Positions 1-6,194 of a DNA stretch of 6,194 nt are shown piece after piece (position 1 is the stretch's first letter; each line of letters starts with the position of its first letter). The notes beneath the pieces were generated by a model, which was given only the letters and a program-made list of their open reading frames with translations, did not search any database and was not told where the DNA came from. The stretch covers positions 1 to 6,194 of the IMG/VR virus record IMGVR_UViG_3300000053_000004; one strand, 5' to 3'. Source of the DNA: a virus. Position numbers and translations under genes: made by a program.

Positions 1-87
1 ATTATGCGAAGCCTCTAGTCAGGAAGGCGCCAGAAAGGCCCTAGGAATTGAGATCTGCTAAAGCTGGTATCAACCAGTGGGTTTTGG
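1..87. repeat. Terminal direct repeat, copy 1 (identical to 6108..6194). Indicates a circular or tandem 6107-bp unit.
   Basis: Base-by-base comparison shows attatgcgaagcctctagtcagg...caaccagtgggttttgg at both ends, offset 6107, with no mismatch. The window begins and ends exactly on the repeat. Confidence 0.95.
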
Positions 88-106
88 TGAAGGCCACTGT
101 AAATGG

Positions 107-1117
107 TCAATTTGAGCCTACAGCGGCTTGAGCGAGATCGGCGGTTGATCCAGGGAGGTTAGAAGATCGTTTTGACTTGGTGTCGCGCGGGCCTGATGAA
201 GATGCGCCAACGATGATGCTACGCGGCAGCGGGTTGGTGATGGCAGACATACAGGCCGGATAGGACATTTTCAGTAGATTGCCCTCGGCGCTATAGCACT
301 GACATTGAGTTTTGGAGCTGATGCAGCCGGCAACAGGGGTAGCCTGCTCCGTTTCACCCCAATCGTACATTTCAGTGGTAGCCGGCTTCTGCGTGCGATT
401 GGTGCCGCCAGCGGCACCCACCCGCACCGCAGACTCCGGCTTTTCTGGTGATGCAGCTGGAGTGGAAGGAGCTGGCGCTTCCTCTTTCGAGATAAGAAAA
501 GAGCTTTCAGTTGTAGATATGTTGTAAGCAACAGCAGCGCTAGACAAGAGAATGAGAAAAAGCATAAAGGCTAGTTTCTTAGGGACCTTGAACTTGTGCG
601 TATGTATGGTGGCTGACTTGTAAAGCTTCATATGAGCTTTAGGGAATGGCCAAGGAACAGAATCCGCCCTGGACTGTTCACCCCTGTCATTTGGGCTGTC
701 TACGCAGTGCTGCCAAGTGTACTTAGTGACAGTTTTCATGCCAAAAGCACGATAGAGATGTATGTGCTCGCCGGCGAGCTTCCTGATGTGATGATTTATA
801 AAACTGGGCGATTGGCTGATAAAAACCAAGTCGTGGCCGGTATGACGGTGAGTCTCCATAGCCTTAAGACGGGTGTCTTTGATTTCACGACCATGACCAG
901 TGGATGGATATAAGTGATCCTGCTGGGCTTCATCATAAATGACTAGAGCACCTTCCATGGTGTCGCGCCAGTCGTCTGGTGCAGGACGGCATTCGGGAAT
1001 ATCGAGGCCTGAAATGTTGGAGTAAACGGGCCTGCCCTCTTCCACCGCTTTAAGAACAAGACCAACGGCAAAGAGTGATTTGCCACTACCAGGGACTGCA
1101 GTAATTAATGTAATCAT
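107..1117 (-). CDS. zot: Zot / pI-family phage assembly ATPase (336 aa)
   Basis: Taken from ORF track 107..1180. Walker A is ITAVPGSGKS and Walker B is ALVIYDEAQ. One TM segment (KKLAFMLFLILLSSAAVAY) is followed by a Pro/Ala-rich and then Cys-containing C-terminal domain, which is the Zot/pI architecture. It is the last gene of the morphogenesis block. I moved the start to ATG 1117..1115 (MITLITAVPGSGKS), which overlaps the upstream stop as ATGA. The 21 codons upstream lie inside the pVI-like gene. Confidence 0.93.
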   Translation of the reverse strand: MITLITAVPGSGKSLFAVGLVLKAVEEGRPVYSNISGLDIPECRPAPDDWRDTMEGALVIYDEAQQDHLYPSTGHGREIKDTRLKAMETHRHTGHDLVFISQSPSFINHHIRKLAGEHIHLYRAFGMKTVTKYTWQHCVDSPNDRGEQSRADSVPWPFPKAHMKLYKSATIHTHKFKVPKKLAFMLFLILLSSAAVAYNISTTESSFLISKEEAPAPSTPAASPEKPESAVRVGAAGGTNRTQKPATTEMYDWGETEQATPVAGCISSKTQCQCYSAEGNLLKMSYPACMSAITNPLPRSIIVGASSSGPRDTKSKRSSNLPGSTADLAQAAVGSN

Positions 1118-1395
1118 GATGAAAGACCGAAGAAGACCTTGGTTGATTGAATAGCAGCACGGGTTAAAAAGGCGCTGCATAAGATCGAAAGACCTTCTGG
1201 GAAGCCAAATAAACTAATGATTTGATAAACAGCTAAAGGCATAGCGCCAAGCAGGTTACGAAGTTGATTTATAAGCTCTTCGACAAGACCAAAAAGCCCA
1301 TAGTAAGTAAAAAGGCCGATTCCCAGGGCGACGAATATTTTTGCTATAACGCTGGATATTATCCAAACGCCTACAGCTGCTAAAACGGCTGGCAT
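1114..1395 (-). CDS. pVI/Ace-like minor virion membrane protein (93 aa)
   Basis: The protein is very hydrophobic with several TM-like segments and sits between the pIII-like and pI-like genes, as in other inoviruses. The C-terminal block MPLAVYQIISLFGFPEGLSILCSAFLTRAAIQS resembles the LPPQYSGFLFFLGLDQALAIVLQALMTRFALRAL block of CTXphi Ace as I recall it. Its ATG (1395..1393) overlaps the pIII stop (TAATG). Confidence 0.75.
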   Translation of the reverse strand: MPAVLAAVGVWIISSVIAKIFVALGIGLFTYYGLFGLVEELINQLRNLLGAMPLAVYQIISLFGFPEGLSILCSAFLTRAAIQSTKVFFGLSS

Positions 1396-2732
1396 TAGTC
1401 AGACCTCCCCATTCCGAGACTTACATATATTGCAGCGATCAAAAAAGCGATTATTACGAATGGCTTTGCAAGAGTGGCAAAGTCACAAGCCGGCTTGAAA
1501 TCAAAAGAAAAAGAACCTTGGTCGGTTTCAATTGGGTATGGTGCAGGACAGGATGCAGAGGATGAGAAAGTTACAGACTCTTCATAGTCCTCATCAGATA
1601 TAAGTTCTGAAAGGTCGGGCTCTTCCTCAGTGAAAGGTGTCCTAACCCATTCGATAAAGGAACAAACTGTTGGCATGAAGTCGCAATCAGTGGGGATATC
1701 AGCAGAAGGTGATTCTACTGTGGTGTTGGTCTCAGTGCTTACAGATGTGCTGGTTTGAGTTCCGTTCTGATATGTATTAGTTACGGTTGTTCCAGTTGAT
1801 GTAATTGAGAGTGGGGAAGTTCCGTATTGGAGCTGTAATGATGGAAGAGATTCGACGACAGTTGTGTCGCCTGTAGTTGGATTGGTGGTAGTTGTCGTAA
1901 CGCCGGGAAGGTCAATGGAGTTTGGGCCGCCAAAGGTTTCTGAATCTGGATAGTCAAATGAGCCAGGAACAGCATCGCTGATATAGGGGGCAGTCGATGC
2001 AGCAAAAGATGGGTCTGATATACCGGAAATAAAAGAATCAATGTCAGAATCAGTGATTGGAAGAGCCTGTGAGCTTACACAAGCAAGAGCACTAGCGGCC
2101 AAAGAAAGACCGGTTGGGCAGGTAGTGCCGGAAGATGAAATCGTAGGGTAGAAAGTTTCTTGATAACTGCCTTGGCTGTAATTTACAGCGCACTTTACGT
2201 CAATGTATGGGCGGTGGCTGTGGATAGAAACAGAGTTTATAGAAGCGCCCCAGGTACTAGCCGCAAATCGGCTAGCAAGCCCCTGGCAGGCACTTATAGC
2301 TGAAGGGTATTTAACACCCTCATGAAGCCAATAAATATCAGAACCTGTTGGCGTAAAGGAGACTGGACTATTGTCCACGCGAGTTATTTGGCTGTTTTCG
2401 TCTATGAGCCAACCAACGGAAGCAACCGCTCCAGTTACTGCGCCGGACAAGAGAAGTTGGCCGGGGTTGAGTTTTATTGCGTTTTTAAGTGCACCGCGAA
2501 AACTTGGCCATGAATACTTTTTTTCTCGAACAACTGGAACCGTGTGACGGTTGCCTTTTTGATCACTGATAGTTGCGTTCCAATCCCTGGAGTCGATAAA
2601 TGCGTCAGGGCCGACACCAGGGCCGTAAGTTGGCTGGAGATCGCCCGGCTGGACAATTATTGTACGTGCAGCATGTGCAGTCAGCGAAAGAGAAAGAAGC
2701 CCGAAGAGACAACAACAAAGAAAACGAGCCAT
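1395..2732 (-). CDS. pIII-like adsorption / minor coat protein (445 aa)
   Basis: The N-terminus is a signal peptide, MARFLCCCLFGLLSLSLTAHA/AR. A long Thr/Ser-rich linker (GVTTTTTNPTTGDTTVV...TSTGTTVTNTYQNGTQTSTSVSTETNTTV) follows. The C-terminal domain contains Cys residues and ends in a TM anchor (KPFVIIAFLIAAIYVSLGMGRSD). It is the largest gene, directly after the coat gene and terminator. I chose ATG 2732 (GGAG 8 nt upstream) over the GTG at 2747 used by the track. Confidence 0.75.
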   Translation of the reverse strand: MARFLCCCLFGLLSLSLTAHAARTIIVQPGDLQPTYGPGVGPDAFIDSRDWNATISDQKGNRHTVPVVREKKYSWPSFRGALKNAIKLNPGQLLLSGAVTGAVASVGWLIDENSQITRVDNSPVSFTPTGSDIYWLHEGVKYPSAISACQGLASRFAASTWGASINSVSIHSHRPYIDVKCAVNYSQGSYQETFYPTISSSGTTCPTGLSLAASALACVSSQALPITDSDIDSFISGISDPSFAASTAPYISDAVPGSFDYPDSETFGGPNSIDLPGVTTTTTNPTTGDTTVVESLPSLQLQYGTSPLSITSTGTTVTNTYQNGTQTSTSVSTETNTTVESPSADIPTDCDFMPTVCSFIEWVRTPFTEEEPDLSELISDEDYEESVTFSSSASCPAPYPIETDQGSFSFDFKPACDFATLAKPFVIIAFLIAAIYVSLGMGRSD

Positions 2733-2764
2733 CCAGAATACTCCCACTCCATAATATGAACTCC

Positions 2765-2793
2765 AAAAAAAAGAGGGAGCGAAGCCCCCTCTT
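2765..2793 (-). terminator. Rho-independent terminator after the major coat gene
   Basis: The minus-strand RNA reads AAGAGGGGG-CUUCG-CUCCCUCUU followed by a U run. That gives a 9-bp stem (one G-U pair), a 5-nt loop and 8 consecutive U. It lies between the coat stop (2811) and the pIII start (2732), the same position as the gVIII terminator in Ff phages. Confidence 0.8.
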
Positions 2794-2810
2794 GTTTGTA
2801 GCGCCTGGGG

Positions 2811-2948
2811 TTAGCGGGCAGTACGGCGGAACATGGCAAAAGCCACAATTACCAGGGTAACGACGAACATTGCACCACCGATGGTGCGAACGTCAGCTTG
2901 CAGGTTGGTGATAGCGGTAATTACGGGGGCGAGAAGATCAGCTTCCAT
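2811..2948 (-). CDS. Major coat protein, Pf3-type, no signal peptide (45 aa)
   Basis: Hand translation gives MEADLLAPVITAITNLQADVRTIGGAMFVVTLVIVAFAMFRRTAR*. It has an acidic N-terminus, one TM helix and a basic C-terminus (RRTAR). The core LQADVRTIGGA matches VQADITTIGGA of the 44-aa Pf3 coat protein as I recall it. It is too short for the supplied ORF track and is followed by a strong terminator. Confidence 0.8.
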   Translation of the reverse strand: MEADLLAPVITAITNLQADVRTIGGAMFVVTLVIVAFAMFRRTAR

Positions 2949-2951
2949 ATT

Positions 2952-3134
2952 TCAGTACCTTTGATGTGAGAGAAGAAAGCGTATTAGTAGATTTAAACCC
3001 CAGGCTGTTGCGTAACACGCGAGAACCGCAAAGCCTAGTTTCAGCCCCTGGGCAACGCTCAGAGGCGGAATTAAAGCGCTGTACTCAACCCAAGTAGTGC
3101 AAGCACCATCGACTAGTTCAGCGCAGATATACAT
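2952..3134 (-). CDS. Small membrane protein (60 aa), candidate pVII/pIX-type minor coat protein
   Basis: The ORF is in the track. Its ATG immediately follows the upstream TAA (TAAATG), with GAGG 8 nt upstream. A C-terminal hydrophobic segment (GLKLGFAVLACYATAWGLNLLIRFLL) is present. It lies just upstream of the coat gene, where Ff phages carry gVII/gIX. The functional assignment rests on position only. Confidence 0.55.
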   Translation of the reverse strand: MYICAELVDGACTTWVEYSALIPPLSVAQGLKLGFAVLACYATAWGLNLLIRFLLSHQRY

Positions 3135-3371
3135 TTAAGCGGCCTCGGCATCGAGTTCAGCTGCAAGGCGTTCAAAAGCAACGACAGCAACTTTCTCGGC
3201 TTCGGCTTGATGCAATTCGTAGGCAGCGGCGCCGATGGCTCCGGAGTCACGTAGGCCACGCAGATAGCCAGCGTGTTCAGAGCTGGAGAATGCGAGTTCG
3301 TAGTGATCAGGGGCGGACTTCATGAGGCACAGCAGGCGCTGGCGTTCTTGATGAAATTCGGCGGTAACCAT
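3135..3371 (-). CDS. Hypothetical soluble acidic Ala-rich protein (78 aa)
   Basis: The ORF is in the track. A strong SD (GGGGAGGG) lies about 8 nt upstream of ATG 3371. It sits in the operon between the SSB and the small membrane protein. It has no TM segment and I recognise no motif. Confidence 0.6.
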   Translation of the reverse strand: MVTAEFHQERQRLLCLMKSAPDHYELAFSSSEHAGYLRGLRDSGAIGAAAYELHQAEAEKVAVVAFERLAAELDAEAA

Positions 3372-3386
3372 GGTGGCGCCCTCCCC

Positions 3387-3671
3387 TTAACCGGCTGCTT
3401 TAACAGCAGCTTGAACGCGGCGAGACTGACGAGGGTCGAAGCTAAATTCGACGCGGCCATCTTTGATGTTGCCTTTAAGGGCGCAAACATACTCACCAAC
3501 TGTAAGAACTTCATCTGGCTTAGAACAGTAGTATTCAAACTTCTGCGGAAAGTCGACACCATCGAGGACGACAAAACATTCAGCCATTGTGTAAGCATTG
3601 CCGCTAACTTTAGCGACACCAGAACGGTGCATACAGGTTGGCGTAACGATCAACTTAACTTCCATAGCCAT
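3387..3671 (-). CDS. ssDNA-binding protein (gene V analogue), Pf3-like (94 aa)
   Basis: An AAGAGG SD lies 7 nt upstream of ATG 3671. The blocks SGVAKVSGNAYTMAECFVVL..FP and VGEYV...DGRVEFSFDP parallel GTSAKGNPYTFQEGFLHL..FP and AGSYQV...NGRPELAFDF of the 78-aa Pf3 SSB as I recall it. Size and position (after rep, before the coat genes) fit. Confidence 0.72.
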   Translation of the reverse strand: MAMEVKLIVTPTCMHRSGVAKVSGNAYTMAECFVVLDGVDFPQKFEYYCSKPDEVLTVGEYVCALKGNIKDGRVEFSFDPRQSRRVQAAVKAAG

Positions 3672-3732
3672 GATATTGCCTCTTTGATGAGCGCCGGTAA
3701 CTTATGACCGGCTGGGTTTGCCCAGGTGGGCG

Positions 3733-3966
3733 TTAATAGCACTCGCCTACGTACGGGGCGGATTTTTCATTGCGGATAACTTTGTATTTGCTGTCATTAT
3801 TGATCTGGACAGCAGACTCAATCTTTTCAGCGGGTGTTCTATTTGCAACAGCGTCATAGCATTCCTGTATGACACTTCCGTTAGTTTGAACATTGCGCAT
3901 TCTCTGTTGAATTTCTTCGCGACGGGTTGACTTGCCCATGAAGAAGTTATCTATTCCGTTTCTCAT
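3733..3966 (-). CDS. Hypothetical hydrophilic protein (77 aa) in a low-GC segment
   Basis: The ORF is in the track. Its ATG 3966..3964 overlaps the stop of the upstream 43-aa ORF as ATGA. It has the same orientation as the operon. I recognise no motif. Confidence 0.55.
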   Translation of the reverse strand: MRNGIDNFFMGKSTRREEIQQRMRNVQTNGSVIQECYDAVANRTPAEKIESAVQINNDSKYKVIRNEKSAPYVGECY

Positions 3967-4094
3967 TTGAAAAAACCTATAAAAAGTGAAATTGTTAAAT
4001 AAGCGGAATAAAGAGCAAGACCAAGACCAGTGATGGCCATAGAAATAATGATGACTTGCCAGAAGAGCCAGCTAATAACGCGAAAGATATCCAT
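3963..4094 (-). CDS. Small hydrophobic membrane peptide (43 aa)
   Basis: Hand translation gives MDIFRVISWLFWQVIIISMAITGLGLALYSAYLTISLFIGFFK*. Its ATG 4094..4092 overlaps the Rep stop (TGATG) and its stop overlaps the next ATG (ATGA). It therefore sits exactly in the translationally coupled chain. It is below the size cut-off of the ORF track. Confidence 0.55.
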   Translation of the reverse strand: MDIFRVISWLFWQVIIISMAITGLGLALYSAYLTISLFIGFFK

Positions 4095-5131
4095 CAGCAT
4101 GCACGCCGTGCGGATTGGTGAATTAATCCGCGATCAAAGAAGAACGCTGGAATAGCGGCGGGCTTGGCTTCCAATATGCGGATCATTGGAATGACATTAG
4201 AGTCGTCGCGGCGGTCGCAACGAATGTTAATGTCAATACCAAGACCCATTAGCTGTTCGCGATGGCGGTAATAAGTGCCATTAGCCAGCATCTGCTTAAG
4301 GTCGTGACCAGCTTTCCAGAGCATATAAGTGCCAAGGATTTTTGATGGAAGTTCCATCATCTGCTTACTGTTTAGTTCAATCTGCTCAGACATATCTAAT
4401 TCCCCTATGAAGTGGCGGTACTGAGCCCATAAAACCGCCGGGGTTAATTGAAACGCATATTCAAGGTCTAAAGCCTTGAGCTTCTTGGAGCGCAAACGCA
4501 GCTCTACACGCAGCTTGTTATCAAGCCATTCGTGAATTTGAGGATTTTCATTTATTTCATCAGGCAACTTGTGAGAGCCGCCAGCATTCAGCTCATCAGC
4601 CTTGCAATAACAAACGACAGACCAATGAGAGGAACCTTTGCCAAAAGTAAGCGTGCCGCGATTGTTTACAGGGCGGCCATGGCGTGACTTGCACTTGAAC
4701 TCACCAGCTCGCAACCAGGAACGAACGTCACCACGGGTTGGCAGCTCAAACATGCGGTTGTAATCGACGCGAGTAACGCGGTACCGCCCTGCCCTAACCT
4801 TCTGTTTTTCGATGTCGGTGGGATTCAGATCAACAAGGCCACAGAGGCGCTGGAAGGTGTCCCACACCAGGGCGACAAGATCGTCGGAGCCGACGAGGTT
4901 GTGACCCTGGAGCCACTTACTGGGATTGCCGTCGATGTAAAGGTGTGTGGCGTTTCCCTTTCCGTCGCCGCCTATGCTGCGAACATGGATGCTCGACTCG
5001 TAAGAACCGCGAACGTGCATCTTGCGAGGGGTTTCCCATGCGACGGTGCCGTCAGCCTCGATGCAAACCACAGCGCCGCTATCTAGCGGTGAGTGCTGTA
5101 GTTCGATCATTACGGCGGCCCAGTCGATCAT
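4094..5131 (-). CDS. Rolling-circle replication initiator, filamentous-phage gene II / CRI / RstA family (345 aa)
   Basis: The conserved blocks I recognise from this family are N-terminal MIDW...; ...VRGSYESSIHVRS...; LYIDGNPSKWLQGHNLVGSDD; VTRVDYNRMF; and VVCYCKADEL (candidate Tyr block). It is the first gene of the operon and is divergent from an HTH repressor, as with rstA/rstR in CTXphi. Confidence 0.9.
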   Translation of the reverse strand: MIDWAAVMIELQHSPLDSGAVVCIEADGTVAWETPRKMHVRGSYESSIHVRSIGGDGKGNATHLYIDGNPSKWLQGHNLVGSDDLVALVWDTFQRLCGLVDLNPTDIEKQKVRAGRYRVTRVDYNRMFELPTRGDVRSWLRAGEFKCKSRHGRPVNNRGTLTFGKGSSHWSVVCYCKADELNAGGSHKLPDEINENPQIHEWLDNKLRVELRLRSKKLKALDLEYAFQLTPAVLWAQYRHFIGELDMSEQIELNSKQMMELPSKILGTYMLWKAGHDLKQMLANGTYYRHREQLMGLGIDINIRCDRRDDSNVIPMIRILEAKPAAIPAFFFDRGLIHQSARRAC

Positions 5132-5258
5132 CCCTAAAACCTGTCAAGACGCATATGTGAGTCGTCAAGGTACAAGATGTGATCGGAGAGAGTCAACAAC
5201 ATCTGATCCGCTAAGGATTCGGATATGATCCAGAGCTTTTGACCAAGGGGTAGGATCG
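5132..5258. promoter_or_regulatory. Divergent control region between rep and the repressor gene (promoters/operators not resolved)
   Basis: This is a 127-bp non-coding gap between divergent start codons. On the rep-sense strand, TTGAC-type hexamers occur at 5191-5196 (TTGACT), 5163-5168 (TTGACG) and 5142-5147 (TTGACA). TTGACC occurs on the + strand at 5239-5244. Three direct AT-N-TGATC repeats lie at 5177, 5201 and 5223. There are four GATC sites in 127 bp. I found no convincing -10 partner, so individual promoters are not called. Confidence 0.6.
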
Positions 5259-5618
5259 ATGGAAGAAACGACGCTGAGCGAAGTGACAATGGCCATAGGC
5301 GAAAACATCAAGAGAGCCAGAGAACACAAGGGGCTCAAGCAGGAAGAAGTAGCCGAGAAAGCAGGCATACCCCTGTCAACATACAAAAATTACGAGCATG
5401 GCAAACAGCCACCGCCAGGGGATCGAATCGGAGCCATTGCGCGGGCGCTGGGAGTATCTGCGGATGAGATCGTTTTTGATGAGAGCGAGAGGCAGGTGAC
5501 GGATGAGCTTAAAGCGATTTTCAGACGATTCGACGAGCTGCCACCTGAACTGAAAACTCAGGCAAAACTGGCAATGAGGGGGCTTTTGATGGGATATGAG
5601 TCGGAGCTGCTGAGGTAA
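5259..5618 (+). CDS. XRE/Cro-CI family helix-turn-helix transcriptional repressor (119 aa)
   Basis: It carries the classic HTH_XRE pattern IGENIKRAREHKGLKQEEVAEKAGIPLSTYKNYEHGKQPPPGDRIGAIARALGVSADEIVF. It is divergent from rep and followed by an intrinsic terminator. The start could alternatively be ATG 5289 (MAIGEN...). Confidence 0.9.
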   Translation: MEETTLSEVTMAIGENIKRAREHKGLKQEEVAEKAGIPLSTYKNYEHGKQPPPGDRIGAIARALGVSADEIVFDESERQVTDELKAIFRRFDELPPELKTQAKLAMRGLLMGYESELLR

Positions 5619-5641
5619 GGGGGATTCCCAAAATGGGACAA

Positions 5642-5670
5642 AAGTCGGGTATCACCTATACCGACTTTTT
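5642..5670 (+). terminator. Rho-independent terminator downstream of the repressor gene
   Basis: The sequence is AAGTCGG(G)TAT-CACCT-ATACCGACTT followed by TTTTT. That gives 7+3 bp of stem with one bulged G. It starts 24 nt after the TAA at 5616-5618. Confidence 0.65.
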
Positions 5671-5804
5671 CGCGATCGGCAGCGCCTGGAAATCCAAAAA
5701 GCCGGCCTGCCGTTTTTTACCTACGGGACCCACCACCGAATATACCTAGCGAGCTGCTGCCGATGCGGTAAAGCGGGTTGGACAGTGATGAGTGCGCCTG
5801 GTGC

Positions 5805-6035
5805 TTAAAGATCGAGGATCTGCCGCGCGAGCTGCTGGAGGTCGGAAACCAGCTTATCGAGGTCCGCGGATTCAGCGTCGAGCTGGGCAAGCCGGCTACG
5901 CATCTGGCGAACATCTGCAACGAGTCGAGGGTAATCAGTCAGCACATGGCAAACCGCGTCCAGGGCATCCCTGGAGGGCGCGTAGAGCTGTGCTTGCTTG
6001 ATCAGGTAGGCAGGTATTTCGAGGGGCGTTCGCAT
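5805..6035 (-). CDS. Hypothetical helical protein (76 aa); coding strand uncertain
   Basis: It has an ATG start, the same orientation as the main operon, and an amphipathic or coiled-coil-like C-terminus (RLAQLDAESADLDKLVSDLQQLARQILDL). A 97-aa ORF with a TTG start lies fully antisense (5778..6071) in this GC-rich stretch. My hand GC3 counts (67% for the minus ORF, 74% for the plus ORF) do not settle the choice. The SD for the minus ORF is weak. Confidence 0.45.
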   Translation of the reverse strand: MRTPLEIPAYLIKQAQLYAPSRDALDAVCHVLTDYPRLVADVRQMRSRLAQLDAESADLDKLVSDLQQLARQILDL

Positions 6036-6054
6036 AATGGCCGTTACATTAAAT
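6027..6054 (+). other. dif-like XerC/XerD recombination site (attP site 1)
   Basis: The site reads CGTTCGCATAA-TGGCCG-TTACATTAAAT, against E. coli dif GGTGCGCATAA-TGTATA-TTATGTTAAAT. That is 9/11 in the XerC arm, 9/11 in the XerD arm, the correct 6-bp spacer and a divergent central region. Confidence 0.8.
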
Positions 6055-6087
6055 CGGGCCTGGACTGGTGACTAGCTTCCAGACCCG

Positions 6088-6119
6088 ACTAAACGTAACG
6101 CCGGTAAATTATGCGAAGC
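6088..6119 (-). other. Second, inverted dif-like site with a 10-nt spacer (attP site 2)
   Basis: The reverse complement reads GCTTCGCATAA-TTTACCGGCG-TTACGTTTAGT. The XerC arm matches dif at 9/11 and the XerD-like arm at 8/11. The arms are 10 nt apart rather than 6. The XerC arm also occurs at window positions 2-12 because of the terminal repeat. Confidence 0.65.
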
Positions 6120-6194
6120 CTCTAGTCAGGAAGGCGCCAGAAAGGCCCTAGGAATTGAGATCTGCTAAAGCTGGTATCAACCAGTGGGTTTTGG
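6108..6194. repeat. Terminal direct repeat, copy 2 (identical to 1..87)
   Basis: See copy 1. The match is an exact 87/87. Confidence 0.95.

Follow-up and report, generated by a model that had tools for sequence, protein, structure and literature searches.

Two inverted dif-like sites in an inovirus genome

The window, by which we mean the whole 6194-nt stretch of viral DNA analyzed here (IMG/VR record IMGVR_UViG_3300000053_000004, positions 1 to 6194), is the genome of an inovirus, a circle of 6107 nt. Near its end, at positions 6025-6120, lies a hairpin of about 96 nt that contains two inverted sites resembling dif, the chromosomal target of the host's XerC and XerD recombinases, and this hairpin is the subject of the present report. 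The minus strand of the window encodes a Zot/pI assembly protein (107-1117), a DUF2523 protein in the position of pVI, a pIII-like protein, a coat B protein, a phage single-stranded DNA (ssDNA)-binding protein, and a rolling-circle replication initiator (Rep) of the G2P family (4094-5131), which sets the coding and packaged strand. The sole clear plus-strand gene, divergent from Rep, encodes an XRE-type helix-turn-helix repressor (5259-5618), the counterpart of RstR. On the circle, the pI/Zot gene is the last one ahead of the hairpin, and directly downstream of the hairpin lies a putative open reading frame (ORF) of 76 amino acids (5805-6035, minus strand; phrog_13909), so that the hairpin stands between the last morphogenesis gene and this ORF, followed by the divergent repressor and Rep. 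An earlier annotation, made from the sequence alone (the first-pass annotation), had proposed that the phage encodes no recombinase. Indeed, when every ORF called as a gene on identical circular contigs was scanned against Pfam and PHROGs, no recombinase, integrase, or transposase was found among them, only inovirus core proteins, the XRE repressor, and unknowns.

Site 1 (6027-6054, plus strand) reads CGTTCGCATAA-TGGCCG-TTACATTAAAT, with a 6-nt spacer, and site 2 (6088-6119, minus strand), inverted relative to it, reads GCTTCGCATAA-TTTACCGGCG-TTACGTTTAGT, with a 10-nt spacer; both sets of coordinates and both sequences had been given correctly in the first-pass annotation. Within site 2, the predicted XerC-binding arm occupies positions 6109-6119, the spacer 6099-6108, and the XerD-like arm 6088-6098, all on the minus strand. 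A degenerate dif pattern, TTCGCATAAT-N5-TTAYRTTAAAT, matched the window once with no mismatch, at site 1, and matched none of 200 shuffled sequences. The nonamer of the XerC arm, TTCGCATAA, occurs three times against 0.07 expected, an approximately 40-fold excess, with one of the copies contributed by the terminal repeat of the window.

With DNA parameters, the hairpin at 6025-6120 folded with -26.7 kcal/mol for the plus strand (z = -4.8) and -28.0 kcal/mol for the minus strand (z = -5.15), and the hairpin still formed in a 295-nt context. The two sites, with their 6-nt and 10-nt spacers, thus form the opposing arms of one long hairpin, as had been proposed, with a z of about -5 on both strands. 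The shape ascribed to it fared less well: rather than being forked, with a bubble of 5 versus 9 nt, the hairpin is simple and imperfect and ends in a 13-nt loop. At minimum energy, pairing covers the XerC arm and the first T of the central region, after which five nucleotides (TTACC, 6103-6107) bulge out on the site 2 strand only. Beyond this bulge come three base pairs, in which the GGC of the spacer takes part, then one G that bulges from the opposite strand, and then about 21 more pairs with one T.T mismatch, ending in the apical stem and its loop (6055-6087, with the loop at 6065-6077). Neither Rfam nor promoter and terminator scans of the hairpin region returned a match. We also considered a transcription terminator and dropped this reading because the stem is not followed by a run of T.

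Without exception, the core genes are encoded by the minus strand of the window. The strand that inoviruses package is the coding-sense one, and in the record of the Pseudomonas phage Pf3 all nine coding sequences lie on the deposited strand; for these reasons, the packaged (+) strand is probably the window minus strand. The strand that matters biologically is thus the minus strand, as far as gene orientation tells, which is a correction to the first-pass annotation. Read 5' to 3' on this strand, the hairpin begins with the XerC arm of site 2, which forms its 5' arm, and continues with the 10-nt spacer, the XerD-like arm, the apex, and the complement of site 1 with its 6-nt spacer, which forms the 3' arm. 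In silico, the folded strand, taken as (+) from the gene orientation, presents an XerC arm and an XerD arm around a partly unpaired central region.

Integration of relatives at chromosomal dif and conservation of the hairpin

A search for close relatives, covering one genome per species, recovered a single one, a prophage in Pseudomonas sp. NPDC079086 (locus L019), whose Rep is 98% identical to that of the window. This prophage, about 6.55 kb long and present as a single copy, lies on a 1.05-Mb contig, and its site 1 is identical to that of the window. Across the integration site, the GC skew of the host flanks switches from +0.045 to -0.038, and the KOPS motif GGGNAGGG converges on the site, counting 4:0 in the left flank and 0:3 in the right one. 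Both features identify the integration site as the true terminus dif, which agrees with the expectation that integrated copies should be found at dif. For comparison, the dif of P. aeruginosa PAO1 is GATTCGCATAATGTATATTATGTTAAAT (PMC2731167).

The L019 junctions define the crossover closely. At attL, the host XerC arm atgcTTCGTATAA is joined to TTCACAGTCG-TTACGTTCAGT, followed by the apex and then by site 1, so that a spacer homologous to that of site 2 stands directly after the host XerC arm. At attR, ccttcctgactagaggcTTCGTATAA is joined to TGTATATTATGTTAAAC, which supplies the dif central region and the XerD arm, and the 17 nt preceding the XerC arm are identical to the window; here the XerC arm of the phage site 2 adjoins the central region of the host dif. 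These junctions confine the crossover to a block of 10 nt, TTCG(C/T)ATAAT, which includes the canonical XerC cleavage position. Crossover thus took place at the boundary between the XerC arm and the spacer of site 2, regenerating dif on the right. The first-pass annotation had correctly anticipated a junction at this boundary. It had also expected the two sites to be separated to opposite ends of the prophage, which is not what we found: only site 2 is split, and site 1 remains whole (L019:8507-8534, minus strand), adjoining attL. It follows that the duplex site of canonical appearance went unused, which is the same paradox that gave rise to the ssDNA model of CTXphi integration. The XerC arms at the L019 junctions (8446-8454 and 14991-14999) carry TTCGTATAA, an Acinetobacter-like variant, and the 3' arm of its hairpin still carries TTATGCGAA, so that a G.T pair is expected within the XerC arm of that hairpin.

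More distant relatives, with Rep proteins about 80% identical, have junctions that agree with those of L019. An attL with host-type flanks was present in four loci (L002, L003, L006, and L013), a canonical dif was regenerated after Zot in three (L008, L010, and L014), and a further window-like prophage, L070, has both junctions. Tandem copies about 7.07 kb apart were detected in L003, L004, and L009. Eleven loci have a canonical dif, in each case on the strand of the long-spacer arm and downstream of it. Overall, integration at dif with crossover at the XerC-arm/central boundary and regeneration of dif on one side is seen in L019, L070, and nine further loci.

To place the hairpin among other viruses, we scanned IMG/VR with the pattern TTCGCATAAT-N60-90-ATTATGCGA, which recovered at least 119 contigs with the same architecture, almost all of them inovirus-sized. 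Among the matches listed, 89 of 100 distinct hairpins have their extra unpaired nucleotides on the 5' side, read on the ORF-rich strand, and the apparent exceptions are mostly parsing artefacts or non-hairpins. Similarly, when spacers were measured against the matches to the XerD arm on the ORF-rich strand, the top spacer (median 11 nt) was longer than the bottom one (median 6 nt) in 81 of the 82 scorable hairpins among the matches listed; site 2-type spacers in relatives span 8-13 nt. The search pattern required the first central T, and its invariance across the survey is therefore not evidence.

In an alignment of 11 window-like hairpins, no variation was seen in the duplex of the XerC arm or in that of the inner XerD arm (GTTACGTT/AATGTAAC). 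In the apical stem, eight pairs change on both sides and yet remain paired, supporting a consensus structure for the whole hairpin. Taken together, the covariation, the invariant arms, and the strand-tied asymmetry indicate that the fold has been selected as a fold and the arms as sequences, with the asymmetry bound to one strand, a combination that neither an attachment site acting only as duplex nor a pure packaging hairpin would predict. The first-pass annotation had reasoned that relatives keeping the shape without the arms would point to a packaging or origin structure; the relatives keep the arm sequences too.

In the same 11 hairpins, an invariant GGA...TCC (alignment columns 43-45 and 60-62) closes the apical stem around a loop of 13-14 nt, and other hairpin types have a similar apex, YGGAMMAT...TCCR. 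This apical stem-loop may be a packaging signal or a complementary-strand origin embedded in the attachment site. An additional recurrent feature is a mismatch in the outer XerD arm, GAG in the 5' arm against ACG in the complement of the 3' arm, found in 18 distinct IMG/VR hairpins among the matches listed (for example L021, L031, L045, L070, and L113) and in a hairpin at L009:991. The same mismatch distinguishes attP1 (TTATGTTGAGG) from attP2 (TTATGTTACGG) of CTXphi, and the likeness of these sequences suggests either a common ancestry of the hairpins or a shared functional constraint on XerD binding.

A candidate CTXphi-type attachment site and its alternatives

We interpret positions 6025-6120 as the phage attachment site (attP) of an integrase-less filamentous phage of the CTXphi type, one that exploits the XerC and XerD of its host, and give this interpretation a probability of roughly three in four. 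For a direct comparison, we folded the attP region of a tandem CTXphi record with the same tool that was used for the window. In CTXphi, the coding strand carries attP1, which has ctxB on its upstream side and rstR (minus) and rstA (plus) on its downstream side. Its fold has the XerC arm and a T paired, followed by a 5-nt bulge on the 5' arm, with the complement of attP2 as the 3' arm. The site sequences and their spacers, 12 nt in attP1 and 7 nt in attP2, are known (PMC3089051). The likeness to attP(+) of the Vibrio cholerae phage CTXphi (Val et al. 2005) that had been claimed for the window is borne out by this control, in geometry as well as in genomic position. Both phages have two inverted dif-like sites and no recombinase of their own; the 5' arm is the long-spacer site (12 nt in CTXphi, 10 nt in the window), carried by the coding (+) strand, and the 3' arm comes from the short-spacer site (7 and 6 nt, respectively); in both, the paired XerC arm and T precede a 5-nt bulge on the 5' side; and the hairpin of both comes after the last morphogenesis or accessory gene and before a divergent repressor/Rep pair. 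The regeneration of dif on one side and the tandem arrays of CTXphi are likewise found in the relatives of the window. The two differ in that CTXphi has a forked apex of about 90 nt, whereas the window has a single 24-bp stem with a 13-nt loop and 69 nt between the XerC-arm blocks; in their arms, which are of the Vibrio dif type in CTXphi and match Pseudomonas-type dif (TTCGCATAA) in the window; and in the extent of homology past the cleavage point, only 1-2 nt in the window. Moreover, the host, the Pf3-like morphogenesis module, and the Rep of the window, which resembles that of phage I2-2, are unrelated to CTXphi, and the window phage is known from its sequence alone.

By analogy with CTXphi, integration would proceed as follows. 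In the packaged or rolling-circle (+) single strand, site 2 would pair with the complement of site 1, so that the XerC arm (TTCGCATAA plus T) becomes duplex and the XerD arm imperfectly so. The five extra nucleotides of the 5' arm would be looped out of the central region, which would keep the dif-like 6-nt arm spacing on the other strand. Host XerCD would bind this folded mimic of dif and synapse it with chromosomal dif, and XerC would exchange the 5'-arm strand at the XerC-arm/central boundary, probably between positions 6108 and 6109 of the window, with homology confined to the first T (TTT against TGT, positions 1 and 3). In the absence of homology on the XerD side, the second exchange would be blocked, and replication would turn the pseudo-Holliday junction into a prophage. 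The resulting attL would consist of the host XerC arm, the spacer and XerD-like arm of site 2, the loop, and an intact inverted site 1, and attR would consist of the phage XerC arm with the central region and XerD arm of the host, regenerating a dif at which tandem or heterologous arrays could accumulate. Excision of the prophage by Xer would not be expected, because a duplex prophage has no folded site and because attL has a 10-nt spacer. The ssDNA substrate, the catalysis by XerC only, and the irreversibility in this scheme are modeled on CTXphi (PMC3442271, PMC4246890, PMC5357621), as, by extension, would be the resolution by replication.

Several observations weigh against this interpretation. 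The homology of the window spacer TTTACCGGCG to the TGTATA of dif is confined to the XerC side, as expected of a CTXphi-type element, yet past the cleavage point it is weak, TTT against TGT, where most relatives have TG or TGT; the spacer in L019 starts with TTC, so that spacers weakly homologous to dif do integrate. Both L019 junctions carry TTCGTATAA as the XerC arm, compared with TTCGCATAA in the window. The exact window genome was not found in integrated form, only as identical circles, alongside one circular relative, the latter (L140) being the single hit of a metagenome scan with a 21-mer spanning the phage end and the XerC arm, which likewise returned no integrated copy. The invariant apical GGA/TCC suggests that the same hairpin has a further role. 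Finally, the prophage junctions fit an ssDNA hairpin and a duplex site 2 alike, both of which give the same attL and attR.

This last point bears on a route of the kind used by VGJphi, in which site 2 of the duplex replicative form would recombine with dif through XerC and the inverted site 1 would be irrelevant to integration. The VGJphi-type integrative mobile elements exploiting Xer (VGJphi, VEJphi, and f237) are, like the window phage, inoviruses that have no integrase; they integrate at dif, by an XerC-first exchange completed by replication, and form the commoner described class (PMC4246890). Their integration is reversible and uses a single duplex attP of about 29 bp, whereas the window has two inverted sites whose fold is conserved, and the spacer of the one exchanged is non-canonical. 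Although the junctions in L019, L070, and the other loci are equally compatible with such a duplex exchange, we regard it as an unlikely account of this hairpin. The crossover site has a spacer of 10 nt (8-13 nt in relatives) in place of the 6-bp central region of dif (PMC3089051) or the canonical 6-7 bp of VGJphi-type crossover sites, and the canonically spaced site 1 goes unused. The duplex route would also leave unexplained the conserved inverted partner with its covarying stem, as well as the finding that nearly all surveyed hairpins (the 81 of 82 among the matches listed) have their long-spacer site on the coding strand; this argument from spacer, partner arm, and polarity was the decisive one for CTXphi (PMC3442271, PMC3089051). 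An XerD-first exchange of the TLCphi type, with a degenerate XerD arm and the activation factor XafT, fits no better: the scanned window ORFs include no Xer activation factor (DUF3653/XafT-like), and both the junction and the homology are on the XerC side.

It is highly improbable that site 1, with its canonical 6-bp spacer, is the real duplex attP and site 2 a decoy or remnant. Site 1 is indeed the better dif look-alike, with no mismatch to the degenerate pattern, but in L019 it lies intact and internal beside attL while the crossover falls in site 2, every locus with an attR has the phage XerC arm in the site 2 orientation, and no junction in the site 1 orientation was seen in 140 loci. We also doubt that the hairpin is mainly a packaging signal or complementary-strand origin whose resemblance to dif is secondary; a weaker form of this idea, a dual role with the apex serving packaging or priming and the base serving Xer, is conceivable. 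Its intergenic position after the last morphogenesis gene would suit such a function, as would the apical GGA...TCC pairs and 13-nt loop, invariant in the 11 relatives and echoed in other hairpin types, and integrative Xanthomonas phages package via a short GC-rich stem with an essential loop (bioRxiv 10.1101/2024.03.19.585677). An exclusive role of this kind is contradicted by the integration junctions, which fall inside the hairpin in L019 and L070, and by the invariance of the dif-arm sequences, where shape alone would suffice. Furthermore, Pf3 (L139, NC_001418.1), the closest named morphogenesis relative, has no such site: we looked for a dif-like site in its genome and found none.

Returning to the CTXphi-type interpretation, the strategy had been tied in the first-pass annotation to vibrio phages, which is too narrow: CUS-1Phi of Escherichia coli O18:K1:H7 and YpfPhi of Yersinia pestis are CTX-type inoviruses outside the vibrios, with an attP reported to be suited to direct ssDNA integration at dif (PMC4246890, PMC3089051) and with tandem prophages at dif (PMC7307601). 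They are likened to the window here by their published descriptions and differ from it in their enterobacterial hosts and genome lineage. A looser, purely mechanistic analogy is offered by the attC sites of integrons, folded ssDNA hairpins with extrahelical bases that serve as tyrosine recombinase substrates and undergo one strand exchange resolved by replication (cited in PMC3442271 and PMC4792948); attC sites differ in their recombinase, IntI, and in their site logic, with no mimicry of dif.

The occurrence of a CTXphi-type strategy in a new host group, Pseudomonas, is a well-supported extension of a known mechanism. The literature searched presents Pf prophages as relying on an integrase and treats phages like Pf3 as non-integrative (PMC7549136). 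We found no paper on a dif-integrating Pseudomonas inovirus in the open-access literature, which is weak evidence of novelty. If the interpretation holds, ssDNA phage integration by host XerCD would reach Pseudomonas, beyond CTXphi/RS1, CUS-1Phi, and YpfPhi, and annotators of Pseudomonas genomes would have a rule by which to delimit prophages and arrays at dif. More tentatively, the window could represent a large and apparently undescribed class in which the attachment site is folded as in CTXphi. Its members, at least 100 distinct hairpins in IMG/VR, would occur in inoviruses of Pseudomonas and of other hosts with a TTCGCATAA-type dif. In this class, the exchanged strand would always carry 2-7 looped-out nucleotides and be the packaged one, and the conserved stem-loop at the apex may tie integration to packaging or to complementary-strand synthesis within one cis element. 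The more than 100 hairpin variants, differing in spacer length, bulge size, and XerD-arm mismatches, would be material for testing what makes a folded substrate for XerC only.

Genome mosaicism, circular forms, and arrays

The closest named relative of the window pI is that of Pf3 (48.6% identity), and that of its Rep is the Rep of I2-2 (46.8% identity), which makes this a mosaic genome. The label "Pf3-like" given in the first-pass annotation thus holds for the assembly protein and fails for the replication initiator. Pf3 (NC_001418) and the window phage are similar in size (5.8 and 6.1 kb) and share their host genus. Pf3 has a different replication protein and is regarded as non-integrative (PMC7549136), whereas the window adds the hairpin, the 76-amino-acid ORF, the XRE repressor, and the I2-2-like Rep. 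The window phage therefore looks like a Pf3-type backbone joined to a cassette for lysogeny and replication made up of these four elements, and a non-integrative morphogenesis backbone appears to have been turned temperate by a small lysogeny cassette. A whole-window megablast search against the INPHARED phages gave no match. Looking up the exact protein of the long Zot ORF also returned nothing, the called gene (107-1117) having a shorter start. Look-ups with Rep and Zot retrieved only identical circular contigs, without host flanks.

Positions 1-87 of the window are an exact copy of positions 6108-6194, a terminal direct repeat that starts at the XerC-arm/spacer boundary of site 2. Two further public assemblies (L017 and L018) contain 6107-nt circles that are 100% identical to the window, with other breakpoints and the hairpin intact, indicating that the element is present as a circle or tandem array in several samples. 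That the window starts exactly at the boundary of the XerC arm might be taken as proof that the phage was integrated in the source sample; we rejected this, as the identical circles break elsewhere and 87 nt is not a recognized assembler k-mer size. The repeat starts at the last base that is common to the phage-phage junction and the attR junction (the final base of GGCTTCGCATAAT, minus strand), and five IMG/VR relatives (L001, L005, L011, L012, and L016) likewise start or end at TTCGCATAAT(G). Such ends at the crossover point could reflect a branch in the assembly graph or a provirus cut at the crossover, with L017 and L018 broken elsewhere.

The 76-amino-acid ORF has its ATG inside the XerC arm of site 1 (TTATGCGAA), so that an arm of the attachment site and a start codon overlap, and the same ORF lies 3' of the hairpin in L019 and L140.

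Some loci contain more than one element. In L009, a sequence-unrelated hairpin element (991-1080) lies directly upstream of a tandem pair of prophages, at 2653 and 9722. Together they form a heterologous array at dif, analogous to those of TLC, RS1, and CTX in V. cholerae. Four further loci (L022:707-3045, L030, L054, and L069) have a hairpin with a canonical dif (TTCG[CT]ATAATGTATATTATGTTAAAT) downstream of it, at a distance of only about 2.2 kb. A repressor, Rep, and an ORF of 109 amino acids precede this dif in L022, and coat-like genes follow it. These four loci may represent RS1-like satellites beside another element, or phages that carry both the hairpin and a full dif.

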